From positions 15,979 to 79,978 of the forward strand of contig DATEBA010000012.1 of the NCBI GenBank assembly GCA_035288045.1: a stretch of DNA of 64,000 nt, read 5' to 3'. Source of the DNA: Actinomycetota bacterium. GTDB lineage: Bacteria > Actinomycetota > UBA4738 > HRBIN12. Below the pieces are notes generated by a model, which saw nothing but the letters and a program-made list of their open reading frames with translations, did no database searches and had not been told where the DNA came from. Both the position numbers and the translations under genes were made by a program. Positions 2,959-58,907 of this stretch are shown piece by piece. The number at the start of each line of letters is the position of its first letter. Within the stretch, counting starts at the first letter, position 1.

Positions 2959-3065
2959 CCCCGCTCGTTGGTACCAGGGGCTACCGGCCGCGAGATCCCG
3001 CCGAGGGGCCCCAGGCGTCCCCCCGGGATCCATACCGAGAAGTGTCCGGCCTCGGCCTTTAGTCC

Positions 3066-7572: not shown

Positions 7573-7745
7573 GAGGGATGCGAACGACCGACTAGTCCGA
7601 CAGGGCGAGGGGCTGCCCGGGTCGGTTATCAGTTGCGAGCTCCCGAGCCGCGCTCGGGCGCCCACCACTGAGAACCGGCCGACTCCTCGCCCCGAGCACC
7701 CGGAGCGCGCGCCCGGCGCGCCCCCACGGCAAGGAGGAACGGCAG

Positions 7746-44369: not shown

Positions 44370-44441
44370 GGGCGGTTAGCTCAGGGGGAGAGCGCTTCCT
44401 TGACGCGGAAGAGGCCAGAGGTTCAAATCCTCTACCGCCCA
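44370..44441 (+). tRNA. tRNA-Val (anticodon GAC)
   Basis: Acceptor GGGCGGT/ACCGCCC and anticodon stem-loop CTTCC-TTGACGC-GGAAG. The Gly-Cys-Val order is typical of actinobacteria. Confidence 0.85.
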
Positions 44442-46194
44442 CGATCTGAAACCCCTGGTAGAGGCTAGGTTGCCGAGGTCATCAAGAGACGTCCTCCTGG
44501 ATCAAGAGGACGCACTAGCGGAGGCGGGGTTCAGGTACGTGGGTCTCCAGCCAGTTCTTGGCGTAAGGGTGGTCTCTCTTGTGAAGCCTCTCCGCGTGGA
44601 AGAAGATCCGGATGCCTTCTGGTCACGACGTCCTCAAGCTTGCGACTACTGCGCCCCTGCGGTACGTGAAGGCGTAGAGCAGCGGCACATGCAACTCAAT
44701 CGAGCAGGATGCCCTCGGCAATCCAAGGGTAGGATCCTCGGCATGCGGATCCGAAGAGCGCTAGCTGTGAGCTCCACAGCATCGATCCTCTTGTTGATGC
44801 TTGCTCCTGTTTCCAGCGTGAGTGGAACGGTTGCTCAGTGTTTCGGGGAACCGGCGACAATCGTCGGCACCCCTGAAGCTGACCGCATCCGAGGGACCGA
44901 TCACGCAGACGTGATCGTCGGTCTTGGGGGTCGGGACGTGATCGTCGGGCGGAAGGGGCTTGACCTCATCTGTGGGAACGATGGACCGGACCGATTGGAT
45001 GCCGGGCGGGCCGGCGACAAGCTCTCGGGAGGCCTCGGCAGCGACGACATCTACGACGGGCGAGGCGACGACATTTCACTCGCGGGCCCAGGGCGGGATC
45101 AGCTGACGAGCATCGTGCAGGCGAGCCCCTGCGACGTGTTTTGCCGCACCTACGACCGATGGAACGACCGGGTGGCCGGTGGCCCGGGGACGGACCGCCT
45201 CTTCATAGATGGGGGCTACGCCAACCTCTCGACGGGTGTCTATGTCACAGATGCCTCCAACGATCGCATCGCGGGCATTGAAGACGTCAGTGGTGGGTTT
45301 CTGAACGAGACGATCATCGGAAACGCTCGTGACAACATGCTGGACGCATACCTTGGCGAGGAAGACATCGTTCGGGGACGAGCGGGTGATGACATCATCG
45401 GCATCTCGGGCAGCGATTTCGAGCAGTCCGAGAACGGCCGCATGTACGGTGGCCCGGGAGACGACTGGCTCGACTTTGAGCATGACGCTCAGGTTGATCT
45501 ACGTGAAGGAACCGCGAGTTCCTCCGGGGGAGAACTTGTGCTTGCGGGTTTTGAGAACGTGCGAGCCAGCGCCAACTCCCTCCTCGCTGGCGACTCGGGA
45601 CCGAACACGCTCATTGGCGAGTTCGGTGTGGACACGCTGATCGGGCGAGCTGGGCGAGATGTCTTGATCAGTCACCTCCGGGATGACTCTCTTGATGGTG
45701 GAAGAGGAACCGATCGCCTTAATGGAGGCAAAGGGACGGATTCGTGTCACCACGGCGAAGTGGTCTCAAATTGTGAGTGAGAGGCCAGGAGGCAGGCCGG
45801 GCTAGCAGCTCTGGAGGCAGCTCGACACCCTGAAGGACGAGATGGAGGAGGGCGACCAGTTCGGGTCGTCCCTCGCCTAGCGCCTCGGGAGCAGGAGGGG
45901 CCGCCAGGCTCCGTTCGCGCCTGGACTTCGTCGCGAGGTCACGGGATCCGGGGAGGGTGCACCGAGCTGGTTTCGCCGTCCGAGCGCTGGGCGCTTTCCG
46001 GCCCCGATTCTTCCCTCCGGTAAGGGGCGGGCAGACGGCCGGTGCCGTACGCCTCGGACACCTGGGAACAGACAGAGCGGTCAACTCCTGGTCAAGGAGC
46101 CGACCGAATCTGACGGTACTCGACGTCACTGGTGTGACGATCGAGACGGGCGTTGAGCAGCAGCGGTGCTGGTCAAGGCATTGCCCTTGACTCT
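44442..46194 (+). mobile_element. Putative degraded integrated islet C at tRNA-Val(GAC), bounded by the first tRNA 3'-half repeat
   Basis: It lies between the intact tRNA 3' end and direct repeat 46195..46237, has a lower-GC leader (44442..44742) and carries a single secreted RTX-like cargo gene. No integrase is present. Confidence 0.45.
44743..45780 (+). CDS. Secreted RTX-like calcium-binding repeat protein; paralog family member 2
   Basis: ATG 44743 with RBS. Signal peptide, CFGEPATIVGT block, G-x-D-x-[IL]-x-G repeats and a C-terminal Cys pair. Colinear with 13025..14098. Confidence 0.7.
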   Translation: MRIRRALAVSSTASILLLMLAPVSSVSGTVAQCFGEPATIVGTPEADRIRGTDHADVIVGLGGRDVIVGRKGLDLICGNDGPDRLDAGRAGDKLSGGLGSDDIYDGRGDDISLAGPGRDQLTSIVQASPCDVFCRTYDRWNDRVAGGPGTDRLFIDGGYANLSTGVYVTDASNDRIAGIEDVSGGFLNETIIGNARDNMLDAYLGEEDIVRGRAGDDIIGISGSDFEQSENGRMYGGPGDDWLDFEHDAQVDLREGTASSSGGELVLAGFENVRASANSLLAGDSGPNTLIGEFGVDTLIGRAGRDVLISHLRDDSLDGGRGTDRLNGGKGTDSCHHGEVVSNCE

Positions 46195-46237
46195 TTGACG
46201 CGGAAGAGGCCAGAGGTTCAAATCCTTTACCGCCCAC
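46087..46237 (+). repeat. att-like repeat 1 of tRNA-Val(GAC): ~105-bp element arm plus 43-bp copy of the tRNA 3' half (46195..46237)
   Basis: TTGACGCGGAAGAGGCCAGAGGTTCAAATCCTTTACCGCCCAC matches the tRNA from the anticodon loop to the 3' end with 1 mismatch. The preceding arm is about 75% identical to the 47821..47930 arm. Confidence 0.8.
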
Positions 46238-47930
46238 CAAGGCCGACGGCGCAATCCCGGATCGCTCAGGACGCCAGATACCGGGCCAGGGCGAACCTCC
46301 GGCCACTACCCTCTTCGCGCGATCCTGCCGCGACGATCCTGCCGTCGGCCTGGATGGCGAGAGCGAAAGCCGTGGCGAACCCACCTCCGAACCTGGTGGT
46401 TACCTTCCCGTCCGACCCAAACGTGTCATCGAGGATCCCGTCAGTCGCGTACCGAGCTAGGGCGAACCGGCCCTCCGTATCGTTCGAAACTTCACCCGAC
46501 GCCACGATCCTGCCGTCGGTCTGGATGGACACCGCGTGAAGGCCGGCATCGCCTGTGGCAAAACGGGTCAGGACTTCGCCGTCCCCTCCAAATGTCTCGT
46601 CGAGGCTGCCATTCCTCCTGTGGCGGAAGAGGGCGAAACCCGCTCCTCCACTCGACCCCCCCACAACGACCTTGCCGTTGGGCTGGATTGCGAGTGCGGA
46701 AGCGCCGCCGTCGGGGTTCAGGACCTTCCCGTCACCCCCGAAGGTGGCATCCAGCGTCCCATCGACGTTGTACCGAGCAAGGGCAAGAGCCGAGCCCGGA
46801 AAGGTGAAGAGGCCCCCCGCCACGACGATCCTGCCGTCAGACTGGACAGCCAAGGCGTCCGCTAGGGCCTCCCCGCGAAATCTCGTCCTCACCTTCCCGT
46901 CGCCCCCGAACGTAGCGTCCCGCGTGCCATCGGTGTTGTACCGGGCGAGGGCGAATCCGGCTCCCTCGAGGGCGAAGGAGACTCCGGCGGCCACGATCCT
47001 GCCGTCGGATTGGATGGATACCGCCGAGGCGGAGGCACCGCCGGCGGCGAGTCTGGTCCGAACTCGTCCGTCACCGCCGAACGTGGCGTCGAGGGTACCG
47101 TTGGTCTTGTACCGGGCGAGGGCGAAGCCGCCCGAGAATTCACCCGCTGCAACGATCTTGCCGTCGGTCTGGATGGCGACTGCGGAAGCGGTGCCGCCGG
47201 GGGTCAGGACCTTCCCGTCGCCCCCGAAGGTGGCATCCAGCGTGCCGTCGGTGTTGTACCGGGCCAGAGCGAATGCCTCGCCTACACGCGATCCCTCGGC
47301 TCGACCCGCCGCAACGATCTTGCCGTCGGCTTGGATGGCGACCCCTGAGGCTAGTGCGGAGACTGTCCGCCGAGGCCAGGTCAAGACCTTCCCATTGCCT
47401 CCGAAGCTCGTATCGAGGTCGCCCGCCGCTGCTGCCGCCGAGGGAGCATTGATCGACAACATGAAGATGAGCGTCGCACTTGCCGCGAGGATCCGAGCCT
47501 GCATCGTGTCAATCTCTCTCTCGAAGTTGCGTCATTAGACCTTCGCCTTCGACACCGGGTCAAGGGTCGGTCCGAGCTGGAGCTCGCGGGAAACTTTGCG
47601 GGAGTGGGAGTAGGAGCCCGCTTCGCCTCTCGCGAACTGGTGGCCGAGTGAATCCGGTGGCTACCGTGGCGAGCTCCACATCAGCCAAGCGATCTACCGT
47701 CGTCCGGTGCCACGGCTGCCTCTGCGAGCCGCTGTCTTCTTCGGCCGCCCCTGCGGTTGATCATTGCGGACCGGCCTGGCCTTGAGGGTGGCCAGTTTCC
47801 TGCTCTTGATTCTGGTCAACCTCTGGTCAAGGAGCCGACGGAATCAGACGGTACTCATCAGTACTCGTGTGGCGAGCGAGAATGCCCGCGAGCAGCAGAA
47901 GTCCTGGTCATGACGCTGTGCGGCACCTCC
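46238..47930 (+). mobile_element. Putative degraded integrated islet D (second tandem unit at tRNA-Val(GAC))
   Basis: Bounded by repeats 1 and 2; single cargo gene (delta-60 repeat protein). Confidence 0.45.
46266..47504 (-). CDS. Secreted delta-60-repeat protein (GxLDxxFGGDGKV...QxDGKIV repeats)
   Basis: Signal peptide followed by about eight ~50-aa repeats with the consensus G-T-L-D-A-T-F-G-G-D-G-K-V ... A-x-Q-x-D-G-K/R-I-V-A-A-G ... ALARY. Confidence 0.7.
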   Translation of the reverse strand: MQARILAASATLIFMLSINAPSAAAAAGDLDTSFGGNGKVLTWPRRTVSALASGVAIQADGKIVAAGRAEGSRVGEAFALARYNTDGTLDATFGGDGKVLTPGGTASAVAIQTDGKIVAAGEFSGGFALARYKTNGTLDATFGGDGRVRTRLAAGGASASAVSIQSDGRIVAAGVSFALEGAGFALARYNTDGTRDATFGGDGKVRTRFRGEALADALAVQSDGRIVVAGGLFTFPGSALALARYNVDGTLDATFGGDGKVLNPDGGASALAIQPNGKVVVGGSSGGAGFALFRHRRNGSLDETFGGDGEVLTRFATGDAGLHAVSIQTDGRIVASGEVSNDTEGRFALARYATDGILDDTFGSDGKVTTRFGGGFATAFALAIQADGRIVAAGSREEGSGRRFALARYLAS

Positions 47931-47973
47931 TTGACGCGGAAGAGGTCGAAGGTTCAAATCCTTCACCGCCCAC
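47821..47973 (+). repeat. att-like repeat 2 of tRNA-Val(GAC): arm plus diverged copy of the tRNA 3' half (47931..47973)
   Basis: TTGACGCGGAAGAGGTCGAAGGTTCAAATCCTTCACCGCCCAC has 5 mismatches to the tRNA. The arm TCTGGTCAAGGAGCCGACGGAATCAGACGGTACTC... parallels 46087... Confidence 0.7.
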
Positions 47974-48460
47974 CAGCGAAGTCCCGCCGGTGTGAGTTGA
48001 CGACTCATCGACGCCGTCACCGGATGGACGCTCTTCGAGCAGCGGGAGACTGACTCCGTAGAACCAAGTGTCGCACTTCCTCCTGTCAGTGAGGGAGACA
48101 GTTGCCCAACATGGCGGGCCGATTTCGGACCGCGAATTTGATCCCCGCAGCCCTCGCTCCGGCCCTTCGGCCTCAAACTCACCCACGGCACCGCCCGCTC
48201 ACCCCCACCCGTAGGGAGTCGGTCGGAGTCCTCGCCCCGAGCGCCGTCCTGGGGTTACCTCCCAAGAGAAGTGTTTGCCCAGGTAGATGGCGTCTGGGGC
48301 AACCCCGACCAATGCTCCCCAGACCCTGCCGCCGGACCTAACCCCCCGGAGAGGAAATCCGTCATTAGGCGGATGCATCGTTAGTCCGTTTGCACTAGGA
48401 TTCAGGCACCACCCGGCGTAGCCGGGGTGGAGGAGCGTGACCTGCCTGAGGAGGGGGTCG

Positions 48461-48985
48461 ATGAGGAGAGCCACGGTGTCGCTGGCGGCCATAGTCGTGG
48501 TGGCGATGTTCGCGACGCCCGCGTTCGCCAACGCGGGGGAGCAGTGCCCGGACGGTACGGACAAGTTCGAGGTGAACGGCGACGCAACCGGTGGGTCGTG
48601 GGAGTGGGGCGGCGACGGCATCTCCGTCGACGTGAGCGGCGCCTCTGCGACGATCACCTTGGACGCCGGTGTCGTCATCGACAGCGTCTGCTGGAAGTCC
48701 GGGATCAACGAGGGCCCGCTGGGGTACGCGACGGGTCCATGGGTCGGTCCCACGACGTTCACGATCCAGACGAACAGCGGTCAGTATCTTTCGAACATCC
48801 ACTTCTACCGCGGCGAGTACCCGCCCGATGGGTACGGCCCCAACGCTGCCACCAGCACGAGCGCGCCGAAGGATCAGAGCGCGGTTCGGCTGACGTGGGG
48901 GATCGTCCTGGCGGTTGTGGCTACGTGGGCGCTCACGCGGACTCTGGTTCGCCGGAGACTCGAGACGCGCAAGGTCGAGGAGTGA
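48461..48985 (+). CDS. Surface protein with signal peptide and C-terminal sorting-signal-like tail (R-L-T-W-G + TM + RRRL)
   Basis: ATG 48461 with GAGGAGGGGG RBS. Signal peptide ...ATPAFANAG, a Ser/Thr/Pro-rich linker, SAVRLTWG, a ~17-residue hydrophobic segment and a basic RRRLETRK tail. Confidence 0.6.
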   Translation: MRRATVSLAAIVVVAMFATPAFANAGEQCPDGTDKFEVNGDATGGSWEWGGDGISVDVSGASATITLDAGVVIDSVCWKSGINEGPLGYATGPWVGPTTFTIQTNSGQYLSNIHFYRGEYPPDGYGPNAATSTSAPKDQSAVRLTWGIVLAVVATWALTRTLVRRRLETRKVEE

Positions 48986-49077
48986 TCGGATAGCTATTCG
49001 TTCTTGAGCTGCGCATCCCCCCCCGAGTTCCTGACTGGCTCCGGGTGGGGAGCCGGCTCCTGGGAGAGGGGGGATCG

Positions 49078-49689
49078 ATGAGGCGACTGTCGGTAGCGCT
49101 GTTGGCGGTGCTTGTCGTTGGGCTGGTGGCCGGGCCGGCCGCCGCCGGGAACAAGGGGACGGTGAAGATAGAGGAGGTTCCTATCGACCTCCTGCCGGAT
49201 AACTCGCCGCATCCGGGATGCGATTTCCTGATCGAGTTCTTCCATTATCCGGAGGGCTCCGAGGTTAGTTGGGTGTTCACCGTGCACCCGCCGACCTCGG
49301 ACACCAACGGACCGGGCTCGGTCGTCGGAAGCGACAGCGCGACCCTGGATCCGGAGGACGCCAACAACCACCACCTCAACCTCTCCAGGGTCCAGAACAT
49401 CGAGGCTGGGTTGATCGCGTCCGGCGTTGAGGCGCACCCGCAGCAGGGGTTCCACGTGAAGCTCTCCGTGACCGGGCCCGAGGGCCCGAAGTACAAGGTG
49501 TTCTGGGTCGAGTGCGCAGGCTACCCGCCGCGTGCGGCCCCCGACACGAGCGGCACGAGCGCCGTCACTCCGACGGATGACTCGGCCGCGCGCATCACGT
49601 GGGGCATGCTGGGGGCGTTCCTCGCCGCTGGCGTCGTGCTCCGTTCGATCCTCCGGCGCCGCCTCGCGCTCCGGCGGACCGGCGGCTGA
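49078..49689 (+). CDS. Paralogous surface protein with the same C-terminal tail (A-R-I-T-W-G + TM + RRRL)
   Basis: ATG 49078 with RBS. Signal peptide, a PDTSGTSAVTPTDD linker, SAARITWG, a hydrophobic segment and RRRLALRR. Confidence 0.6.
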   Translation: MRRLSVALLAVLVVGLVAGPAAAGNKGTVKIEEVPIDLLPDNSPHPGCDFLIEFFHYPEGSEVSWVFTVHPPTSDTNGPGSVVGSDSATLDPEDANNHHLNLSRVQNIEAGLIASGVEAHPQQGFHVKLSVTGPEGPKYKVFWVECAGYPPRAAPDTSGTSAVTPTDDSAARITWGMLGAFLAAGVVLRSILRRRLALRRTGG

Positions 49690-49909: not shown

Positions 49910-49984
49910 GGGCGCGTAGCTCAGCGGGAGAGCGCTTGCTTCACACGCAAGAGGTCGCAGGTTCAAAACCTGCCGCGCCCACCA
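49910..49984 (+). tRNA. tRNA-Val (anticodon CAC), CCA encoded
   Basis: Acceptor GGGCGCG/CGCGCCC, anticodon arm CTTGC-TTCACAC-GCAAG and T-arm GCAGG-TTCAAAA-CCTGC. Confidence 0.85.
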
Positions 49985-49994
49985 GACAGGATCG

Positions 49995-50280
49995 GAGGCT
50001 CACAAGGGATTGGCGAAGAGCTCCCGGCCGTGGGTCCCATCGTTGGCGGCGAAGAAGAGGGTCCCAGCGACGTTCGCAAGGGACTTCGGGTGCGAGCCCC
50101 CAGATTCCGGGTAGATGTCGTTGACCTGGACTGTGCCGGCCTCGGTTCCGTCGCTCTTCCAAAGCTCGTAGCCGTCCGTGCCGTCGTCGGCAGCGAAGAA
50201 CAGGGTCCTCCCGACGTTGGTGAGGAACCTTGGGTACGACCTCGCCGATCCGGTTTCTGTCCCGTGTATTCCGGCGATTC
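49995..50280 (-). pseudogene. Remnant of an ELWxxDG-repeat protein gene (no start, truncated)
   Basis: The DNA is alignable, at roughly 75% identity, to the repeat-coding part of 51852..53045 (compare 50150..50230 with 52650..52740). No complete ORF. Confidence 0.5.
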
Positions 50281-50490
50281 ATGGAGCGTGCGCCCGAGTA
50301 CAGCTTCGAGCCCCACGCATACCTCGCGGACGACGAGCATGGAGTGGAGCTCCAGAAATCCCACTACAGGCGGGGCGACCAGACGCTGGACACAAACGAC
50401 ACGTTCGTCTGCCACTTCCGAGACGGCAAGGTCACAGAGACGTGGCTGTCGACAGACGATCCGTACGGCGTGGACGAATTCCTCGGCTAG
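50281..50490 (+). pseudogene. C-terminal fragment of a SnoaL/NTF2-like protein
   Basis: ...TFVCHFRDGKVTETWLSTDDPYGV resembles the C-terminal strands of SnoaL-like polyketide cyclase/NTF2 folds. Only about 70 codons, with no N-terminal half. Confidence 0.35.
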
Positions 50491-50511
50491 CCGCGGGACC
50501 ATCGAGTTGCT

Positions 50512-51843
50512 CTACTCTCCGCGGGCGCTGTGCTCGACGATCGACGCGAGATCGACCCTGGCCAGGTAGGAGTCGAAGCTACCGGCGTTCGACTCGCCCG
50601 CGAAGGTGCCCGAGGTGTCGCCGATCACGAACAGATCGCCGGCCGCGCCCCATCCCCAGCCCACCGTTTCCTCTTCGTCGGTTCCGAATTCGAGTGTCCA
50701 TTGAGCGTCGCCCGTCGTCGGCTCGAACGCCCGGGCGAAGACGTCGTCACCGCCGAGGTTCGTTTGGCCATGGAAGGCGCCACCTGTGGTCCCCACGGTC
50801 ACCACGTCGCCCCGCACCAGCGTCGCGCCCGCGGACGCATCGACGGCCCTCGTGCCGAACTGCCTGGTCCAAAGCCCGACGCCTGCCGGCGAGAATCCGC
50901 GGATGAAGGCGTCGGACCTACCCCTTCTCTCGAACCCGCGGAAGGATCCCCAGGTCTGGCCCGACACGTACACGCCGCTCGCATCGGCCGCCAGCCCCGA
51001 CCCGATGTCGGCCCTGTTGGTACCGAACTGGCGCAGCCACAATCTCCTCCCGTCTCGAGAGAACAGGGCGAGGAACGCGTCCAAGTCGCCGTGAGAGCGC
51101 GCCCCGGGAAGGTGACCGTCGGTGAAGCCGTTCACGTAGATGCCCTGTGGGGCGATCATCGCCGCCCACGCTTCCTCATACCCCCGCCCGCCGAACTGCC
51201 GCAGCCACTCCATCGCTCCCCGCTTGTCGAAGCGGGCGAGGAACAAGTCGGCGCTGCCATGGTTCACACGGTTCGCGAACGCGCCGAAGGTGTACCCGAA
51301 CACGAAGACGCCCGACCGGTCCACCACGATGCCCGCCGCGTAGTCGTCCTCGTCCGTTCCGAACTGCGCCATCCACCGCTCGTTCCCCTCGAGGTCGTAC
51401 CTCGCGACGAACGCATCGGCTCCCCCCGCGCTGGTCTGACCGGGTAACGAACCCGTCGTGGCACCGTCCACGTAGAGGCCAGACGCGTCCGCGCGCGCGG
51501 CGCCGACCTCCTCCCACCTCCTCGTGCCGAACTGCACGGTCCAGACCTCCGAGCCCCGCGCGTCGGTGCGCCTGATCCATCCGTCCGCGTCCCCCTCGCT
51601 GGCCTGCCCCGGGAGGGCGCCGTAGGTCAGACCCCCCGTGAAGACGTCCCCCCCGAAGGAGTCGACCGCGTAGGTGCCGAGCTCCGGAGCCGGAGAGCCG
51701 AACTGATCGACCCAGGCCACGGACCAGGTGATCGCCGCGCTCGGGGGCCCGAGGAGACCAACGAGAACCGCTAGCAACGCAGCGAGCGGGAACGCCGGGC
51801 CGCCCCAGCGACCGGGCGCTCCCGCGGCTCGAGACAGCGTCAT
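50512..51843 (-). CDS. Secreted beta-propeller repeat protein (SBBP-like repeats: W..QFGT...D.A.GV..D.SGVYV.G.T.G...G)
   Basis: Start at 51843 (MTLSRAAG... signal/TM), then about eight ~48-aa repeats. Confidence 0.65.
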   Translation of the reverse strand: MTLSRAAGAPGRWGGPAFPLAALLAVLVGLLGPPSAAITWSVAWVDQFGSPAPELGTYAVDSFGGDVFTGGLTYGALPGQASEGDADGWIRRTDARGSEVWTVQFGTRRWEEVGAARADASGLYVDGATTGSLPGQTSAGGADAFVARYDLEGNERWMAQFGTDEDDYAAGIVVDRSGVFVFGYTFGAFANRVNHGSADLFLARFDKRGAMEWLRQFGGRGYEEAWAAMIAPQGIYVNGFTDGHLPGARSHGDLDAFLALFSRDGRRLWLRQFGTNRADIGSGLAADASGVYVSGQTWGSFRGFERRGRSDAFIRGFSPAGVGLWTRQFGTRAVDASAGATLVRGDVVTVGTTGGAFHGQTNLGGDDVFARAFEPTTGDAQWTLEFGTDEEETVGWGWGAAGDLFVIGDTSGTFAGESNAGSFDSYLARVDLASIVEHSARGE

Positions 51844-51851
51844 CGACCTGG

Positions 51852-53045
51852 TCACGGAATGGTCACGAAGTCGTCCAGGAACGACCGCGCGATCGCGATG
51901 TCGTTCCTCCACGCCCAGGATATGCCGTGGCACTGTCCGGTCTCACCGTCGCCTACGGCGACCGCGACGTTGGAGTTCCCGAGGAAGTAGGGCGCGCCCG
52001 CATCTCCGCTGCAGACGCCCCCCTGTCCGGTCGCGGTCGAGTTGATCTGCAGCTCGATGGTGCCCGGGTCGATCGCCGCGATCTGGGCCGTCGCCCACCG
52101 CCGCGCTCCGTCGAACCAGTAATCGCACGGCCCAGAGCCCGAGCAGTCGGCCTCGACGCCGTAGCCGACCACCGTGAGCGACTGGCTCTTCTTCACCGAC
52201 TCCAGCTGGTCGAGCGTAGGCAGCCGGGCCGGAGTGATGCCTCGAACGGGCCTGGCGAGGATCGCAACCCCGTAGAGGTTGAAGCCGTTGGTGAAGTTCA
52301 CCTCCGGGTGCAAGTACCCGGCCTCGACGGTTCGGAGGGTCGACGTCTCTGGATCGAGCACCGGGTCGAACGAGACCACCGCCCGACCGCCGATCGACTG
52401 GGCGTATTCCACGCCGCCCGGGCACTCCGGAACCGTGAGGAACGCGGTCGAGGAGATCAACACACCCGAACAGAAGGCGAAGACCTCACCGTCCGGATCC
52501 TCCAGCACCATCACCCCGACGTTCGGGTCGCTCTTCCACAACTCGCGGCCAGTGATGCCGTCGTCTGTGGCGCGGAAGAACAGGGTCCCTCCAACGTTGA
52601 TGAGCGTGCCCGGGTACGAGCCCCCCAATCCTGGGACGATGTCCTTCACTTGCACTGTCCCGGCCTCGGTCCCGTCGCTCTTCCACAGCTCGGGGCCGCT
52701 GATGCCGTCGTTGGCGCGCAAGAACAGGGTTCCCCCGACGCTGGTGAGGAGCCTTGGGCGGAACCACGGACCCGACATGGCCGATCGGGGGTTGATGTCC
52801 TTCACCAGGGCCGTACCGGTTTCTGTCCCGTCGCTCTTCCACAGCTCGGGGCCGCTGACGCCGTCGTTGGCGCGCAAGAACAGGGTCCCTCCGACGTTGG
52901 TGAGGCTGCCGAGGTGCGAGGTCGTCGATCCGGGGTTGATGTCGCGGACCAGGTAAGGACTCCCGGCGGCGCTTGCAGAGGGCGCGGCAGGAAGCGATGC
53001 CACGAGACAGACGAGGATCAGCGCCGCCTTTCGTACGGTTCGCAT
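51852..53045 (-). CDS. Secreted protein: three ELWKSDGT-type repeats + trypsin-like (S1) domain with all three catalytic residues substituted
   Basis: Start at 53045 (MRTVRKAALILVCLVASLPAAPSASA) with AGGAG RBS. Repeats GTLFLRANDG(V/I)SGPELWKSDGTE x3. The S1 fold landmarks CSGVLIS...LTVPEC (His->Glu), GVAILARP (Asp->Gly) and CSGDAGAP (Ser->Ala) are all altered. Confidence 0.6.
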   Translation of the reverse strand: MRTVRKAALILVCLVASLPAAPSASAAGSPYLVRDINPGSTTSHLGSLTNVGGTLFLRANDGVSGPELWKSDGTETGTALVKDINPRSAMSGPWFRPRLLTSVGGTLFLRANDGISGPELWKSDGTEAGTVQVKDIVPGLGGSYPGTLINVGGTLFFRATDDGITGRELWKSDPNVGVMVLEDPDGEVFAFCSGVLISSTAFLTVPECPGGVEYAQSIGGRAVVSFDPVLDPETSTLRTVEAGYLHPEVNFTNGFNLYGVAILARPVRGITPARLPTLDQLESVKKSQSLTVVGYGVEADCSGSGPCDYWFDGARRWATAQIAAIDPGTIELQINSTATGQGGVCSGDAGAPYFLGNSNVAVAVGDGETGQCHGISWAWRNDIAIARSFLDDFVTIP

Positions 53046-53184
53046 CGCTCGGCTCCTCGTTGGCCACCGGCAGGGGGAAGATTTCGACAAGCGAGACTCT
53101 ACTGATGTCGGAGGAAGCAGCGCAAGGCTCTGGCTGATTCGCCGATAGATACCTTGGGTTCGCGTCCTCTGTCCCCCCTGACGC

Positions 53185-53238
53185 GATAACCTTCTCGATT
53201 CGCTCGCCTCTGACGTGCATAATGTCCAAGGCGCACAG
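53185..53238 (+). repeat. Left part of the att arm of the tRNA-Val(CAC) islets, interrupted by IS30
   Basis: GATAACCTTCTCGATTCGCTCGCCTCTGACGTGCATAATGTCCAAGGCGCACAG parallels 58794..58846; the last 24 bp are identical. Confidence 0.75.
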
Positions 53239-54693
53239 ACCAGGTTCAACGGGTCCTCGCAACACCGGCTGGCTGGACTGAGAGTAGGTGATCGTTCAAA
53301 GCTTCGGCGGGCGTGCGCCAGTCGAGAGTCTTGCGCGGCCGAGTGTTCAGCGCCAGGGCGACGGCTTCGAGATCATCGGCGTTGTGTTTGCTCAGGTCGG
53401 TTCCTTTGGGGAAGTACTGGCGCAGCAGTCCGTTGGTGTTCTCGTTCGTGCCGCGCTGCCAGGGGCTGTGCGGGTCACAGAAATAAACCGCGAGACCGGA
53501 GCCGATCCGCAGTTCGGCGTGTTTGGCCATCTCCTTGCCTCGGTCCCAGGTGAGGGAGCGCCGAAGCTGTGCGGGGAGTGTCGTGATCGTGGACGCGATA
53601 GCGTCGCGGACGGCCTCGGCCCCGTACCCGGCGAGCGCCGGCCCGTTCTTGACTCGTGGCTCGGTGCCGTAGCCCTCCAGGCGGGGTAGGTGCAGCAACA
53701 TTGTGAACCGGGTGGTTCGCTCGACCAGCGTCCCGATCGCGGATCGGTTCAGCCCGATGATCAGGTCCCCTTCCCAGTGCCCGGGCACCGCACGATCCGC
53801 GACCTCGGCTGGGCGGGCGCTGATCATGACTTCGGGTGTGATGAAGCCGTCGCGGCGCTGTCGGGAACGAGCTCGAGGCACGCGCAGTGCTCGACCGGTG
53901 CGCAGACACGAGACCAGCTCCCGGCGCAGCGCCCCGCGGCCCTGCACGTAGAGCGCCTGGTAGATCGCCTCGTGTGAGATCCGCATGGACCCATCATGAG
54001 GGTGCTCGACACGCAGCCGGTTCGAGATCTGCTCCGGGCTCCAGGACTTGGCCCAGCGCCGGTCTTGGCGGCGACCGTGCCGACGACCGATCCAGCGCAC
54101 CTCGGGTCCGGGCACGAGCTCACCGTCGGGTCGGGTTATCGAACCGGCGAGGCGGTCCTGCACGTACTCGCGCAGCTGCTCGTTCGCGGCGAGCTTGGAG
54201 ACCTTCGGGCGGCTGGCTCGCCGCTCTGCGTGCCACTGCGCCGTCGACGCCCGGTACTCCAAGCGGTACGTGCGAGTCGAGGCGTTGCGGCGGAGCTCCC
54301 GCGAGATCGTTGACGGCGACCGACCCAACCGTCGGGCGATCGCGCGCACCCCGACGAGCTGGGCGTGCAGGAGCGCGATCTCCTCGCGTTCAGCAAAGGA
54401 CAGGTAGCGACCAGACAAGTGGACTCAGCGAGATGGGTGGCATCCCGCCAGCGTGACGGAACCACCTCGCCCCGACCGCCAGCGACACGCCGGCCTCGCC
54501 GGCGGCGTCCTCACTGGATGCGCCACGCGCTATCGCCTCCCAGAACGGCACTCGGTCTTCGCGCCGAGCCGTCGAAGGCCGCCCCGGGGACCACATCTGA
54601 CCGCGCATCGCACGGATCGCCTGCTGACGCTCGCGAACACCCATCGCGCACCACCTCCGTCTCGAGGTGTTGCGACGACCACTTGATTCCGCC
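53239..54693 (-). mobile_element. IS30-family insertion sequence, apparently intact (1455 bp)
   Basis: 28-bp imperfect terminal inverted repeats (ACCAGGTTCAACGGGTCCTCGCAACACC vs reverse complement of the right end; 19/28 matches, the inner 10 identical). Flanked by a 3-bp CAG direct repeat (53236-38 and 54694-96). The uninterrupted target sequence is visible at 58823..58860. Confidence 0.75.
53246..54418 (-). CDS. IS30-family DDE transposase
   Basis: N-terminal HTH (LSFAEREEIALLHAQLVGVRAIARRLGRSPSTISRELRRN) and a DDE domain (HWEGDLI, DRGKE, NENTNGLLRQYFPKGTDL), 390 aa. Confidence 0.9.
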   Translation of the reverse strand: MSGRYLSFAEREEIALLHAQLVGVRAIARRLGRSPSTISRELRRNASTRTYRLEYRASTAQWHAERRASRPKVSKLAANEQLREYVQDRLAGSITRPDGELVPGPEVRWIGRRHGRRQDRRWAKSWSPEQISNRLRVEHPHDGSMRISHEAIYQALYVQGRGALRRELVSCLRTGRALRVPRARSRQRRDGFITPEVMISARPAEVADRAVPGHWEGDLIIGLNRSAIGTLVERTTRFTMLLHLPRLEGYGTEPRVKNGPALAGYGAEAVRDAIASTITTLPAQLRRSLTWDRGKEMAKHAELRIGSGLAVYFCDPHSPWQRGTNENTNGLLRQYFPKGTDLSKHNADDLEAVALALNTRPRKTLDWRTPAEALNDHLLSVQPAGVARTR

Positions 54694-54757
54694 CAGCGCA
54701 TAGACCCGGGTGCTTCACACGCAAGAGGTCGCAGGTTCAAAACCTGCCGCGCCCACA
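54694..54757 (+). repeat. Right part of att arm plus direct repeat 1 of the tRNA-Val(CAC) 3' half (54712..54757)
   Basis: CGCATAGACCCGGGT + GCTTCACACGCAAGAGGTCGCAGGTTCAAAACCTGCCGCGCCCACA is identical to tRNA positions 49938..49981. Confidence 0.85.
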
Positions 54758-54773
54758 AGGGTCGCGAACGAGC

Positions 54774-55363
54774 ATGTCAGAGGGTGTGTGTAGCCTCTTC
54801 GGGTCGGCGCGGTGCGCGAGCACAGCGTCGGTTGAGCGGCTGATCGAGTTCCTGGAGTCGGGCGGGATGCCCACGGCGATCGAGAACGTCAAACGCGAGC
54901 ACCTCGAGAGCTCATCGAGCACTTGGTCGAGACGAGGGCGCCGGCGACGGCCTCGAACAGGTTCCGAGCCGTGAAGGGGTTCTTCGCGTGGGCCACGCGC
55001 GACGAGGAGGTGATCGCCGAGTTGCCGATGCGGAACATGGCTTCCCCGCGGGTCCCCGAGTCGCCGCCGGACCTGGTCAGCGAGGACGAGGTGCGCGCGC
55101 TGCTCGCGACCTGCCGCGGCAACGCGTTCGACTCTCGGCGCGACGAGGCGATCATCCGGCTCCTCTACGACACCGGCGCCCGGCGAAGCGAGGTCGCGAA
55201 CCTGCGCCTCGACGACGTCGACGCAGCCCTCCCGCAAGGCGCGAGGGCCAAACGGAGGCTCGCCGGATGGCTCGGACCGAGAAGCTCTCGCCGGAGCAGC
55301 GATCCCTACGCGCGCGTCTCGCTGCGCACGCGCTTCACTCCTCGCGGGACTCTCGCGAGCTAA
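54774..55363 (+). pseudogene. Tyrosine recombinase (phage-integrase family) pseudogene
   Basis: The N-terminal SAM-like/core-binding region and catalytic box I (RDEAIIRLLYDTGARRSEVANLRLDDVD) are present. A 20-bp tandem duplication (54897..54936, GAGCACCTCGAGAGCTCATC|GAGCAC...) shifts the frame. The downstream box II/Tyr region is absent. Confidence 0.65.
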
Positions 55364-55826
55364 CAGCCAAGGCTCGCGAGAAGTTCCTCGACCGCTTCGC
55401 GCGAGCCGTCGATCCCGACGGCGTCCTCGATCCGGCAGAGCGCGAGAGGCGCGCCGAACACGCGCGGAAACGGTACTTCCTCGAGCTCGCGTACAAGAGC
55501 GCGAAGGCTCGACGGCGAAGGCGGCGCGGTGAGCGAGTCCGCGCGCGCTCGGTGGCTGCGCCGGCTGCGGACCGGCGAGGGCCTCGACGGCGGCTGGTCC
55601 GGGGTCATGTCCGTGGCGAACGGTCTCGCGGCCGCTGGCCTCCCGGAGTCGTTCACCCGCGACGCGCTGCTCGAGCCCTCGAACGTCGGCGCTCGCTACG
55701 TGAACTTCAGCTCGACCGGGAAGGCGAGGCCGACCTCTACGCGCGAGCGTTTGGTCCGCGAGGCGCTTCGGAAGGTGCGAGCGCGGCAGGCTCGAGCTCG
55801 GCCGGTTCGCGACCGAGGCGAGGTGA

Positions 55827-56468
55827 TTGGAGGCGCTGGCCGCGATCCGCTCGGCGATCGACGCCGTTCCCGAGCGATGGCGGTGGACCGCCGGCGCGAC
55901 CGATCGCGCCGTCCTGCTCGCCCTGGTAAGGATCGCGGAGCGGTTCGGACGCCTCGAAGTGGGCGCGTCCGTCCGCCAGGTCGCCGACGAGGCAGGGGTG
56001 GGCGCCGGCAGTGCGTCGAGGGCCCTCGGCCGGCTGCACGACTTCGTGCGGGTCGTCGAGCGCGGCGTCGGCACGCGGGCGTCCACGGTTCGTCTCGAGC
56101 GGGTCGAAGTGTCACGGCGCCGTGACGCACCCGAGCGGCAAGAAGTGGAACCCTCAGGTTCTGTCCCTTCGTGGACAGTAGAGGGTTCCAGTCTTTGCCG
56201 CGACGTGTTCTGGTGGGGCGCGCTGGGCAAGCGGGCCGGACACGCGTTCGAGTTGCTAGGGGTCGAGATGATCCCGACCGAGCGGGTCGCCGGCGTCGCC
56301 GGCCGCGGCGATGAGCAGCGGCGCCGTCATGGGAAGCGGGCGCGCGGGCGCCGGGAGTACCTCGAGCGGCGAAGGGTGGAACGCAAGGACGAAGGCCGAC
56401 GCATCGTGGCGGCCGTGCTGTCAGAGGCGGACGCGATGCTTGCGCCAGGCGCGAGGCGAGGTCGCTGA
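55827..56468 (+). CDS. Winged-helix/HTH protein (candidate element regulator or replication-initiator-like), TTG start
   Basis: AVLLALVRIAERFGRLEVGASVRQVADEAGVGAGSASRALGRLHDFVRV reads as a MarR/Rep-like wHTH. Frame choice is uncertain because of overlapping GC-rich ORFs. Confidence 0.35.
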   Translation: MEALAAIRSAIDAVPERWRWTAGATDRAVLLALVRIAERFGRLEVGASVRQVADEAGVGAGSASRALGRLHDFVRVVERGVGTRASTVRLERVEVSRRRDAPERQEVEPSGSVPSWTVEGSSLCRDVFWWGALGKRAGHAFELLGVEMIPTERVAGVAGRGDEQRRRHGKRARGRREYLERRRVERKDEGRRIVAAVLSEADAMLAPGARRGR

Positions 56469-56745
56469 TGGAGGAGCTGTCGAGCGAACGGGACCGGGCG
56501 GTGATCGAGCGCGCGGTCGAGCAGTTCGTCCTGGCGGTGGTCGAGGGCCGGTTCGTGAACGCCGACGAGGCTGCCGCCGTCGCCTTCGGGGTCGCTCGCC
56601 TTGCCGAGGCCGAGGACCCGAGCACGAGGTCGCGGTGGTGAGGGCGATAGCAGCCCTTGAGCCCCAAGCATCGGCTCTACGGGTGCGGGCGACCGTGCCT
56701 GGACGGCGCCTCGGGACGGTCCTGGGGACGCGAAGTTAATCGGGT

Positions 56746-57036
56746 GTGAGGGGGGAGATCATGCAGAGGACGACGAGCGAGCTGGCCGACCTATCGGACG
56801 AGGAGCTCGAGACCCTGCGGGACGGGCTCGCCCACGACGTCAGAACCGGCGACGCCGACGTCCGGGCTCGCCTCGAGAACGCCGAGGACGAGATCGCGCG
56901 CCGCCAGCGGGAGAGCGAACGAGAGGCGGCCGCCTCGCAGGAAGGCGAGCGCCGGCTCGAGGACGCCAAGAAGATCGAGACGGCGACGGCTTCGTGGACC
57001 GGGGCGCGTTCCTCGACTTCGATAGGTGGGTGTTGA
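56746..57036 (+). CDS. Small acidic coiled-coil hypothetical protein
   Basis: Probable start at 56761 (MQRTTSELADLSDEELETLRDG...). No recognisable domain. Confidence 0.3.
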   Translation: MRGEIMQRTTSELADLSDEELETLRDGLAHDVRTGDADVRARLENAEDEIARRQRESEREAAASQEGERRLEDAKKIETATASWTGARSSTSIGGC

Positions 57037-57315
57037 GCGAGATCGAGTGCGTGCTTCGGCTCCGCAGCTCCGACGTCGTTCGGGTCGAGGTCACCGAAGG
57101 CACCGGACAGGCGTTCATAGCCTCGTAGGCGGCCGCAGGGCTCGGGCGTGGTACCGCGCGACTCAGGTGGGGGTTTCGACGGTTTCGCCGGGAACGAGAA
57201 AAAGCGGGGCCTGGTGGGCCCAGCTAAGAGTGTCGCGGCGCCGCGACACTTCAAAGGCGGCAGCGACGGTCCCGCACCTCGGCCGAGTGGTAGGCGGTGT
57301 TGAAGCGCGGGCGCT

Positions 57316-57331
57316 GGTTACCTAGGTAACC
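57316..57331. repeat. Perfect 16-bp palindrome GGTTACCTAGGTAACC
   Basis: Exact dyad in the non-coding stretch of islet B, upstream of the secreted-protein gene pair. Confidence 0.8.
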
Positions 57332-57544
57332 ACCCCACACCCGCCAGGCCCGGGCGAGCAGGCGGGCCTCGACGAGGCGACGGTCATTGACTCCGATGTC
57401 GACGAGCTTCGTCGAGCCCATTGTCCGGACCTCGGGCAATGGACCGGTCGCCTCCAGCCTTCGCGATCTCAACCGTTCCGCTGACCCTCGTCGACGACCC
57501 TCGGCGAGCCTGCCACCGGGGGGGTTGACAGGGCCTTTGTCGTT

Positions 57545-58015
57545 GTGCTAGGGACCGAGATGGACGTGGTTAAGCGTGCAGGAATCGCTCTTGTGCTCTC
57601 GGGCTCCATCGCGTTCGTCGGTACCCTCGTCGGTGCAGCGGCTCCGGGAGGCGTCTCGCCCGGCGCCTATCCGAAAGTCGCTGTCGATCAGGAGACCGGC
57701 CTGGTCACTCCGGCCGAAGTTGGGGAGGTAGAGCCTTGCCCAGAGAACGGCCTCGTGCCGGCCGGTAGCACCTGCCAGCTTCTCGCGATTGGTAACGGGG
57801 AATACAGCTGGCACGTCCTTGAAGCGGCCGAGGCGGCCCCTCCATGCGAACGAGCTACGGCCCCATCGGGGACAGATCCGTCAAGCTGCACAGTCCTCAG
57901 AGTCGAGCCGAGCAGCGTGGGTGATTCGGCGCTGCTGGCTTTCACAGCTTCGAACGGTGATGTGGTGCGGGTTTGGGTCTTCCCGGGGGGAAGACAAATC
58001 GTGTTTGACTCATGA
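57545..58015 (+). CDS. Secreted hypothetical protein (Cys-containing, 156 aa)
   Basis: Signal peptide (AGIALVLSGSIAFVGTLVGAAAP) preceded by a TTGACA -35-like hexamer. Stop overlaps the start of the next gene. Confidence 0.5.
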   Translation: MLGTEMDVVKRAGIALVLSGSIAFVGTLVGAAAPGGVSPGAYPKVAVDQETGLVTPAEVGEVEPCPENGLVPAGSTCQLLAIGNGEYSWHVLEAAEAAPPCERATAPSGTDPSSCTVLRVEPSSVGDSALLAFTASNGDVVRVWVFPGGRQIVFDS

Positions 58016-58587
58016 GGCCGATTCGAATACTGGTCGTCGGTCTGGCGTTGCTGATCGCCACGCCCGTCGCGCTGGCGACGCACACAGTCTCAAACTCATG
58101 CTTCGGCGAAAGCGTTGAGATTCAGGGAACAGACGGCAACGACTCGAACGTACGGGGAGATGGTTCAGCAAACGTGATAGCCATCGGGGCCGGGAGCGAC
58201 AACATCTACTCGCACGGTTCTGGGGATCGTGTCTGCGCCGACGACGACAACGATTACACCGAGGGCGGAAATGGTGCTGATCGTTTGGCAGGAAATGGCG
58301 GAAATGACGGGGTTCTGGGCGAAGACGTCGGCGACACGGAGGTTCAGGGGAATACGGGCACAGATGCTGTAGAGGGGAACGCGGGAAATGACGAGGCCCT
58401 TAGAGGCGGGGGCGGATCAGATAACGTCAATGGCGGGAACGGCGACGACACTCTCTACGATGGCTCAGGTGATGATCTGGTCGACGGCGGACCCGATATC
58501 GACACCTGGAAGCCCTGTCCCGACGGCATAAATGACACGGATGTCAACATCGAGAACTATTTCGTCGCCCAAGACGAGTTCTGTTGA
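58012..58587 (+). CDS. Secreted RTX-like calcium-binding repeat protein; paralog family member 3 (short form)
   Basis: Signal peptide, SCFGESVEIQGTDGND block, G-N/S-G-x-D repeats and C-terminal Cys residues. Confidence 0.65.
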   Translation: MRPIRILVVGLALLIATPVALATHTVSNSCFGESVEIQGTDGNDSNVRGDGSANVIAIGAGSDNIYSHGSGDRVCADDDNDYTEGGNGADRLAGNGGNDGVLGEDVGDTEVQGNTGTDAVEGNAGNDEALRGGGGSDNVNGGNGDDTLYDGSGDDLVDGGPDIDTWKPCPDGINDTDVNIENYFVAQDEFC

Positions 58588-58793
58588 TCCGAACTTCGGA
58601 CTTCGGGAGAGGTGGGGTTCTATTAGACCACCCTCGATTGTCGCTCCGCGTCGCGACGACGGACCAAGGCATTCCCGGCACCGACGGCTAGCCAGGGCGC
58701 CATTCGCCGTCTCGTCGGCGAGACTCAGCGCCTCCTCTCGGCGCCACGCTACGATGGCTCGCCGGTCGCCGCCAGCGCGAGTCCGACCGAGGC

Positions 58794-58907
58794 GATACTT
58801 CCTCGCTTCGCTCGCGCCCGAGGTGCATAATGTCCAAGGCGCACAGCGCATAGACCCGGATGCTTCACACGCAAGAGGTCGCAGGTTCAAGACCTGCCGC
58901 GCCCACA
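58794..58907 (+). repeat. att arm plus direct repeat 2 of the tRNA-Val(CAC) 3' half (58862..58907), uninterrupted version
   Basis: GTGCATAATGTCCAAGGCGCACAG|CGCATAGACCCGGATGCTTCACACGCAAGAGGTCGCAGGTTCAAGACCTGCCGCGCCCACA. It equals 53215..53238 joined to 54697..54757, with 2 mismatches. Confidence 0.85.

Follow-up and report, generated by a model that had tools for sequence, protein, structure and literature searches.

The 64,000-nucleotide stretch of DNA analyzed here (the window) corresponds to positions 15,979 to 79,978 of the forward strand of contig DATEBA010000012.1 (assembly GCA_035288045.1) of an uncultured Actinomycetota bacterium. About 9 kb of it, between a tRNA-Val(CAC) gene and thrS, are divided into two units, called unit A and unit B in the following, by direct repeats of the 3' part of this tRNA gene. 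The intact tRNA-Val(CAC) gene (49910..49984, + strand) was called by ARAGORN, and its predicted fold has a 7-bp acceptor stem. Its 3' 46 nt (copy 1; exact-match coordinates 49937-49982, + strand) begin at the second base in the 5' strand of the anticodon stem, end one base past the discriminator and recur twice downstream. Copy 2, a tRNA-Val(CAC) 3' fragment at 54711..54756 (+ strand), is identical to copy 1 over 46 bp, which is the longest exact match between the tRNA gene and this copy according to both a repeat finder and an exact-match script. Copy 3, a displaced fragment at 58861..58906 (+ strand), adjoins the chromosomal flank and differs by a single mismatch in the T loop (TTCAAGA versus TTCAAAA in copies 1 and 2). 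The stem-loop TGC-TTCACAC-GCA is preserved in all three copies. Copies 2 and 3 also have in common the 4 nt that follow the tRNA sequence (CCCAC|AAGG), while the intact gene reads CCCAC|CAGA at this position. A 30-nt probe taken from the repeat matched three times in the window and not once in 100 dinucleotide-preserving shuffles. An initial annotation of this stretch had described the 3' half as recurring once exactly and once with one mismatch, which the exact-match script and the shuffles bear out; its repeat coordinates, however, were all shifted by +1. The thrS gene starts ~490-510 bp downstream of copy 3 and is followed by a HIT-family gene, both of which are core genes.

Both downstream copies are accompanied on their 5' side by related sequences, which we refer to as the P arms of the attachment (att) sites. 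In unit B this arm is uninterrupted and lies directly 5' of copy 3 (58786..58860, + strand). In unit A it is split by an insertion sequence (IS) into a distal part (53176..53238, + strand), which aligns to 58786-58846 of the unit B arm, and the proximal 14 nt CGCATAGACCCGGG (54697..54710, + strand), which stand directly 5' of copy 2. After rejoining the two parts (~75 nt), 65 of 77 positions are identical between the arms, and the 40 nt nearest the tRNA segment contain only one difference. The arm 24-mer GTGCATAATGTCCAAGGCGCACAG is present without any change in both arms, with two matches in the window and none in the shuffles. The initial annotation had placed the same ~65-bp arm in front of both copies. 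The homology stands, but only 14 nt directly precede copy 2, as the split by the IS had been overlooked. Further copies of the arm, which it had thought worth looking for, were found neither elsewhere in the window nor in a scan of JGI metagenome contigs, which returned the same locus only.

Unit A (49983..54710) comprises 4728 bp, or 3270 bp without the IS. Starting at the tRNA-proximal end, it contains a truncated fragment of an ELWxxDGT-repeat gene (50001..50275, - strand; NCBIfam TIGR04534, 106.8 bits) and a SnoaL_2-like fragment (50281..50490, + strand), which covers only the C-terminal part of the domain (PF12680 positions 40-101 of 102) and scores 25.6 bits, below the cut-off of 27 bits. 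These are followed by a 443-aa SBBP beta-propeller repeat protein (50512..51843, - strand; Pfam PF06739, partial match to NCBIfam NF047494), whose N-terminus on inspection has a signal-like hydrophobic segment, and by a 397-aa protein combining ELWxxDGT repeats with a trypsin-like serine protease (51852..53045, - strand; TIGR04534 170 bits, Pfam Trypsin 24.3 bits), which starts with the signal-like sequence MRTVRKAALILVCLVASLPAAPSASA. The genes of unit A have a host-like GC content at third codon positions (GC3) of 0.86. No integrase homologue was found in unit A by Pfam scan or tblastn, and its sole recombinase is the DDE transposase of the inserted IS; likewise, no family match to conjugation or relaxase genes was obtained among the open reading frames (ORFs) scanned. 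Within the unit, the DNA of the ELWxxDGT fragment (50044-50234) is 77% identical to a repeat inside the ELWxxDGT-trypsin gene (52568-52758; also 52724-52914), which suggests an internal rearrangement or a truncated paralogue. The same fragment also differs between strains: the window haplotype is without ~26 nt at 50250-50253 that are present in most other contigs, and with these 26 nt the called ORFs have 88 and 89 aa instead of the 69-aa SnoaL-like ORF.

The IS that splits the arm of unit A is ~1455 bp (1.46 kb) long (53239..54693, - strand) and belongs to the IS30 family. Its transposase scores 258.8 bits against NCBIfam NF033563 (cut-off 80) and also matches Pfam HTH_38 (71.7 bits) and rve. 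The 390-aa ORF (53246-54418, - strand) carries the HTH_38 and DDE regions, and an N-terminal extension (about 54390-54650) sits in a different frame. Therefore, the element may be inactive. Alignment of the ends revealed imperfect terminal inverted repeats, and the element is single-copy in the window. The trinucleotide CAG is found on either side (53236-53238 and 54694-54696), and the corresponding empty target can be read from the uninterrupted arm of unit B as ...GCGCACAG|CGCATAG..., that is, ending CACAG|CGCATAG. Judged by its transposase above the family cut-off, the terminal inverted repeats and the CAG flanks, we consider 53239-54693 an IS30-family insertion flanked by a 3-bp duplication; target duplications of 2-3 bp are typical of this family. 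The element resembles other IS30-family members in all these features, apart from the N-terminal extension of its transposase being out of frame. Contigs from other samples that extend over this position all contain it as well. At this locus it is a secondary passenger that did not give rise to the tRNA repeats.

Unit B (54757..58860; 4104 bp) is present in every contig that extends over it. It begins, 18 nt past the core (the repeated tRNA segment), with the remnant of a tyrosine integrase (~150 aa; 54774..55222, + strand) that matches only positions 4-50 of 172 of PF00589. What is left includes the N-terminal SAM-like domain and the beginning of the catalytic domain as far as the first Arg motif (TGARRSE). 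Deletion has removed the HxxR motif together with the region of the Tyr nucleophile, and a three-frame translation revealed a 1-nt frameshift at ~54912 in the window. Among 5.8 billion proteins, its homologues are 41-57% identical. To an intact 326-aa integrase encoded at another locus (L111) it is 41% identical, and the relationship to this element extends to the next three genes, which are collinear in both and 44-67% identical: an 89-aa gene (55264..55530, + strand; tblastn 66% identity over 70 aa) homologous to a 91-aa gene of L111; a gene broken into two frames (55529..56468, + strand; 55529-55756 and 55827-56468), whose homologue in L111 encodes the 354-aa protein P0018 (67% identity along 76 aa for one frame, 44% along 180 aa for the other); and a 57-aa gene (56468..56641, + strand; tblastn 54% identity over 46 aa), the counterpart of a 55-aa gene that follows the 354-aa gene in L111. 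A relative, P0019, has an HTH_20-type domain (PF12840). About two-thirds of unit B consist of this element backbone, and gene content and order show unit B to be a decayed member of an integrase-bearing element family. The cargo follows in the distal 1.2 kb, which has a lower GC content (0.61). It comprises a possible 151-aa ORF with a signal-like N-terminus (57560..58015, + strand), which has no family match and is uncalled in the listed public gene calls, and a secreted 191-aa protein with RTX-type calcium-binding repeats (58012..58587, + strand; Pfam PF00353, partial NCBIfam matches, GC3 0.65).

Scanning of the submitted ORFs of both units gave only the integrase remnant, the IS30 transposase and secreted repeat proteins; genes for conjugation, replication or virions were not detected with Pfam and NCBIfam (PHROGs were not searched). 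The statement of the initial annotation that neither unit encodes a functional integrase agrees with these results, given that the one in unit B is truncated and that unit A has none, though a DDE transposase is present. Its description of all cargo as secreted proteins was too broad: most of unit B is backbone, unit A also holds the ELWxxDGT and SnoaL_2 fragments, and one of the two ORFs of unit B taken as secreted is the uncalled one. L111 was also considered as a guide to the att sites of unit B. It adjoins the 5' end of a tRNA-Ala(GGC) gene and not the 3' end of a tRNA-Val gene, and its only long direct repeat (111 nt; 7715-7825 and 10684-10794, 95% identity, 3 kb apart), the first copy of which overlaps a called 65-aa gene, is not tRNA-like. 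Therefore, L111 is uninformative about the att sites of the family. The same applies to a fragment of an integrase fused to a gene of the 91-aa type (P0006 at L113), which is located on a short contig without any tRNA gene.

We compared the locus with relatives found by a scan with threonyl-tRNA synthetase (ThrRS) that covered one genome per species and returned none of the same species. The nearest genomes are metagenome-assembled genomes of Actinomycetota with 67-76% ThrRS identity. In two of them (L064 with 76% and L003 with 69%) a tRNA-Val(CAC) gene is located ~600-700 bp upstream of thrS, nothing similar to unit A or unit B is found in the interval, and the order thrS, HIT and an EF-G-like gene is conserved downstream. 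Since these two genomes hold only ~600-700 bp between tRNA and thrS, the comparative evidence identifies the empty site as the ancestral arrangement; a comparison with a closely related genome having an empty site had been suggested in the initial annotation. The distance between copy 3 and thrS (about 490-510 bp) is of the same order. Two further relatives, L002 and L007, have 4.9 and 3.1 kb between tRNA-Val(CAC) and thrS, in which no tRNA-fragment repeats were found.

Exact-sequence look-up of the integrase remnant and four proteins of the window in JGI, ENA and Logan assemblies retrieved ~40 contigs, which are 99.4-100% identical to the window and mostly at least 99.8%; the window itself corresponds to ENA ERZ27254873 k141_3896489. 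The arrangement of the window (tRNA, unit A, IS30, unit B, thrS) is present in at least six further samples. In contrast to these, contigs from four JGI samples are without unit A. Three of them, L084/L117 (14.5 kb), L122 (5.7 kb) and L123 (3.9 kb), span the junction and join the tRNA directly to unit B: position 49982 of the window abuts 54711-type sequence with an overlap of the core only, at 99.8-99.9% identity. The fourth, L100/L121, agrees with this arrangement and ends 6 nt past the core (AAGGGT). In the contigs without unit A the tRNA ends with ...CCCACAAGGGTCG, and ARAGORN still calls tRNA-Val(CAC); in these strains the segment that forms copy 2 in the window is the 3' half of the tRNA gene. 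Unit A is a precise presence/absence polymorphism bounded by the repeats among ~99.9% identical strains. This contradicts the view of the initial annotation that both units are fixed islets, at least for unit A.

The order of events can be approached with the frameshift in the integrase remnant. The truncation is found in every contig covering the remnant, so that in all haplotypes the integrase is dead and unit A must have been gained or lost without a working integrase in either unit. An additional T at 54912, which restores the N-terminal frame, occurs only in L117 (= L084) and L123, both without unit A. The frameshifted allele is present in L122, which also is without unit A, and in all contigs with unit A. 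This allele pattern favors a single late gain of unit A, as the alternative needs two losses or recombination between lineages. We therefore lean toward a history in which a state without unit A and with the remnant in frame was followed by a frameshifted state still without unit A, and unit A was gained last.

Three more contigs point to further states of the site. In L099 (= L118; ENA ERZ27254793 k141_2077091) the upstream side is window-like (99.9%), and the tRNA has a third T-loop variant (TTCAATA; AATACC) and the trailer CCACCACCC. The adjacent 167 nt (1-167) bear no relation to either unit or to the thrS leader and open an ORF, MSTTQPGPIAPP..., at which the contig ends. It seems that a third occupant resides at the tRNA-Val(CAC) site in this contig, and it could be the supplier of an integrase. 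Different occupants are paired with different tRNA 3' halves, having A, G or T at T-loop position 59, and with different trailers (CCAGACAGG, CAAGGGTCG, CAAGGTGAG, CCACCACCC). In L090 (ENA ERZ27254735 k141_1234814; 2728-3085) the left 2.4 kb of unit A, 100% identical to the window, are fused to the 5' half of a different tRNA-Val(CAC) gene (GGGCGGT...). This 5' half mispairs with the element-borne CGCGCCC, and two acceptor-stem pairs are lost in the predicted fold, as expected if the element-borne half has replaced a non-cognate one. Upstream lies an unrelated flank of 283 nt in which TTGACT-17-TACAAT is found, and the CCA is followed by a 4-nt deletion (ACAG) private to this contig. There are two readings of L090: unit A occupies a second integration site or host, or the contig is chimeric. 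In L089 (JGI 3300025312 Ga0209321_10033408; 3058-3093), 36 nt at the contig end (GCTTGGCCGAGGTGAAGGTGATGGGCCTGAGCCGGGT), which match neither tRNA nor arm, stand before the left end of unit A (GCCGCGCCCACCAGACAGG); this may be an artefact of the assembly end. Neither the alternative sequence of L099 nor the flank of L090 nor the end of L089 gave a BLAST match among all fetched loci.

A second array of the same architecture is located ~5 kb upstream at tRNA-Val(GAC) (44370-44442, + strand) and extends to 47973; the initial annotation had not linked it to the units at tRNA-Val(CAC). The 3' 46 nt of this tRNA gene recur at 46192-46237 and 47928-47973 (+ strand), and an ARAGORN call "tRNA-???" at 46148-46239 corresponds to the first fragment plus part of its arm. 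The two arms of ~115 nt (46079-46191 and 47814-47927, + strand) are identical to each other at 85 of 115 positions and contain repeated CTGGTCAAGG motifs; no similarity to the arms of units A and B was found beyond words of 6-7 nt. A GTC(C)AAGG motif that appears to be common to the arms of both arrays is an impression only. Unit C (1749 bp) carries one RTX protein (44743-45780, + strand) and unit D (1690 bp) one delta-60/DUF5122 propeller protein (46266-47504, - strand); neither contains an integrase, and both units are present in all contigs covering them. The outermost Val(GAC) fragment has two compensatory changes in the T stem (AGAGG/CCTCT versus GAAGG/CCTTC) and, combined with the 5' half of tRNA-Val(GAC), folds into a predicted perfect cloverleaf. 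Therefore, the fragments derive from distinct functional tRNA halves and not from a local duplication, which is what integration of elements carrying their own tRNA segment predicts and duplication does not.

Inspection and a hydropathy scan indicated positively charged, hydrophobic N-termini for all six intact cargo proteins of units A-D. The RTX genes of units B and C have a GC3 of 0.65-0.67, compared to ~0.87-0.92 in the listed core genes, and the regions 57500-58700 and 44443-46078 have a GC content of 0.61-0.63 versus 0.68 in core stretches. As the RTX genes are atypical in GC3 and unit A is host-like, the units seem to come from different sources.

Taken together, we consider it very probable that the 9 kb between tRNA-Val(CAC) and thrS are a tandem array built by tyrosine-integrase recombination at a core centred on the anticodon stem-loop. 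The combination of homologous arms with unrelated cargo and the direct 3' fragments downstream of the tRNA, beginning in the anticodon stem, are in support of accretion. With the repeats, the arms, the empty site and the integrase remnant, the core of the initial annotation, the serial site-specific integration of two att-related elements at one tRNA, holds. In the proposed scenario each arriving element would replace the 3' half of the tRNA gene and shift the prior half downstream, with the crossover at the anticodon loop; classes of integrases differing in sublocation within tRNA genes were reportedly described by Williams in 2002. At the beginning, an element of the family with integrase, 91-aa, 354-aa and 55-aa genes would have entered tRNA-Val(CAC) through an attP site consisting of the arm and a 46-51-nt copy of the tRNA 3' part, so that the native 3' half was displaced downstream as copy 3 and the element-borne half completed the gene. 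This element would then have decayed, the integrase losing its catalytic C-terminus and the 354-aa gene becoming frameshifted. Afterwards unit A, which lacks an integrase and whose arm belongs to the same family and whose tRNA half ends in CCA, would have entered the regenerated tRNA gene; the half borne by unit B was presumably displaced as copy 2, and copy 1 would have been brought by unit A. Because both resident integrase genes are dead or absent, this step would require an integrase acting in trans. Finally, the IS30 element may have inserted into the arm of unit A with duplication of CAG, which probably uncoupled the arm sites from the core.

Several points weigh against this scenario. 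That the arms are integrase-binding sites is an assumption; no arm-site motif was demonstrated. A helper integrase was not found: tblastn with all integrase homologues matched only the remnant in the window, and among the 5.8 billion proteins the best non-self relative is 57% identical and partial. Furthermore, an exact-pattern scan of JGI metagenome contigs for an attP or circular arm/core junction gave only chromosomal junctions (three contigs, all from the same locus), and none in viral contigs. The similarity of the flank after copy 3 to the tRNA trailer of L064 is suggestive, yet not significant (58 of 500 shuffles), and the same flank has no significant similarity to the trailer of L003. 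The direction of the polymorphism is deduced from only three haplotypes without unit A, and RecA-mediated deletion between the 46-bp repeats would yield the same junction. L090 is the sole contig of its kind, is 3 kb long and could be chimeric, and look-up via the ELW-fragment ORF gave no longer copies of this type.

The possible deletion leads to the most serious alternative: units A and B could have been acquired as a composite, or unit A first, and unit A, not being mobile, was later lost by RecA-dependent recombination between the repeats. Copy 1 matches copy 2 with 100% identity throughout its 46 bp, which is sufficient for rare homologous recombination, and the deletion would give exactly the junction of L084, L122 and L123. 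The failure to find a helper integrase or an attP form also fits, as does the IS30 element in the arm of unit A, which is present in every covering contig and probably hampers site-specific excision; the transfer of a whole composite is known as well (PMC5704250). But this explanation demands two independent losses or recombination between lineages, because both 54912 alleles occur without unit A, and only the frameshift allele, which is the derived one, occurs together with unit A. Deletion also cannot explain L090, where unit A is found at another tRNA-Val(CAC) gene, and the third occupant in L099 with its own tRNA half indicates that the site was used repeatedly. We therefore judge a composite with later loss to be unlikely. 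An assembly artefact is less probable still. In this case the presence or absence of unit A and the contexts of L090, L099 and L089 would result from assemblers misled by the repeats of 46-49 bp and by tRNA sequence that different organisms have in common, and all strains would have tRNA, unit A, unit B and thrS in that order. Breaks at the repeats or close to them are indeed frequent (L098, L100, L101 and numerous short unit A contigs), L090 and L089 each consist of one short contig, and junctions without unit A co-occur with unit A contigs in samples 3300025312 and 3300025159. Yet the junction was assembled independently in three samples, on contigs of 3.9-14.5 kb that run well beyond the repeat on both sides; the fourth contig is consistent with them, but stops shortly past it. 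Two of the three spanning contigs have the private +T at 54912, which is separated from the junction by only 155 nt and is never linked to unit A, and L090 has its own 4-nt deletion beside the tRNA. At the k-mer sizes with which assemblers usually finish, a repeat of 49 bp would be expected to interrupt contigs and not to make a through-path unless reads span it.

It could also be argued that a module of ~120 bp, arm plus fragment, was duplicated locally, through replication slippage or unequal crossing-over, and that the intervening DNA is ordinary chromosome. The arms and fragments are indeed very similar, the genes of unit A have a host-like GC3 of 0.86 and no working integrase is present. 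Against this stand the relatives with only ~600 bp between tRNA and thrS, the integrase remnant 18 nt from the core and the conserved mobile-element backbone of unit B, as well as the atypical GC3 (0.65-0.67) of the RTX cargo. In addition, the fragments start exactly in the anticodon stem in both arrays, that is, at two tRNA genes with unrelated arms, and the compensatory T-stem changes in the Val(GAC) fragments indicate separate functional origins. Hence, duplication has hardly any likelihood left.

Tandem accretion of elements derived from integrative and conjugative or integrative and mobilizable elements (ICEs, IMEs) together with cis-mobilizable elements (CIMEs) is documented, for instance for the ICESt1/ICESt3-CIME arrays of Streptococcus thermophilus (Pavlovic 2004; Bellanger 2011) and for pathogenicity islands of Streptomyces (Zhang & Loria 2017), as reviewed in PMC5704250. 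The known arrays have the following features in common with this locus: units piled up at the 3' end of one target gene are bounded by direct att repeats, both att sites but no integration genes remain in one of the units, the att sites are related while the cargo differs, and the array forms by entry of an element at a resident's att site. Unit A would behave like a CIME and, on its gene content, falls under the definition, being flanked by att sites at both ends, devoid of genes for integration or transfer and equipped with an arm related (65/77) to that of a unit with an integrase remnant. In contrast to the known arrays, the integrase of its partner unit B is dead and cannot now mobilize unit A in cis, conjugation and mobilization genes are missing, the units are very small (1.7-4.1 kb), and the host is an uncultured member of the Actinomycetota in which the array is known from sequence alone.

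The locus also resembles the islands collected by Islander and TIGER, which have an intact tRNA gene (tDNA) and displaced direct 3' fragments with identity from the anticodon stem to the 3' end. In the Islander collection, which includes an anticodon-centred attP class, 125 tandem arrays are listed among 3919 islands; every array member has to include an integrase ORF, and islands have to be 2-200 kb long (PMC4383910). Here, the complete tDNA and the fragments share replicon and orientation and the fragments are downstream, as Islander expects; with their start in the anticodon stem the repeats fall into the anticodon-centred attP class, and the integrase remnant adjoins the regenerated tDNA. 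Units A (4.7 kb, 3.3 kb without the IS) and B (4.1 kb) fall within the length range, and the island is absent at the same site in related genomes, in L064 and L003 and, for unit A, in L084, L122 and L123. The difference is the integrase ORF, which is missing in units A, C and D and reduced to a 5' remnant in unit B; units C and D (1.75 and 1.69 kb) are also below the 2-kb minimum. Therefore, Islander-type pipelines would probably miss or merge such units.

Tandem tRNA islands and CIMEs are already known, and by mechanism this locus is a textbook signature. Less usual are the tiny size of the units, the fact that two adjacent tRNA-Val genes hold four of them, all integrase-less or integrase-dead, the cargo of secreted repeat proteins and the evidence for recent gain or loss. 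The additional value lies in the population data: an att-bounded, integrase-less unit of 3.3 kb is variably present among ~99.9% identical strains, the breakpoints fall precisely within the att core, and the sole neighbouring integrase gene is dead in all haplotypes. In combination with the two 1.7-kb islets at tRNA-Val(GAC), this variability suggests that tiny integrase-less units encoding secreted proteins of the surface or adhesion type are exchanged via trans-acting integrases. If true, the locus is a simple natural system in which trans-mobilization and the changing repertoire of secreted proteins in environmental actinobacteria can be studied; otherwise it is a decayed island array of the ordinary type.

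A more far-reaching proposal, which we regard as doubtful, is that units A-D represent a class of integrase-less mini-islets of 1.7-3.3 kb, that is, currently mobile, trans-mobilized cassettes targeted to tRNA genes. Such cassettes may consist of one or two genes for secreted repeat proteins, an arm of 75-115 nt and a tRNA-Val 3' half, and they may move within and between populations, as unit A may have been gained after the death of the resident integrase and an identical copy is found in L090. If this holds, finders that require an integrase and at least 2 kb miss such cassettes systematically.

The stretch between the two tRNA-Val arrays contains two paralogous ORFs (48437-48985 and 49045-49689; 26% identity), for which no Pfam match was obtained; one of them was scanned against NCBIfam, also without a match. 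This stretch has no synteny with the relatives examined. Both ORFs have a signal-like N-terminus and a C-terminal hydrophobic anchor that is followed by RRRL.

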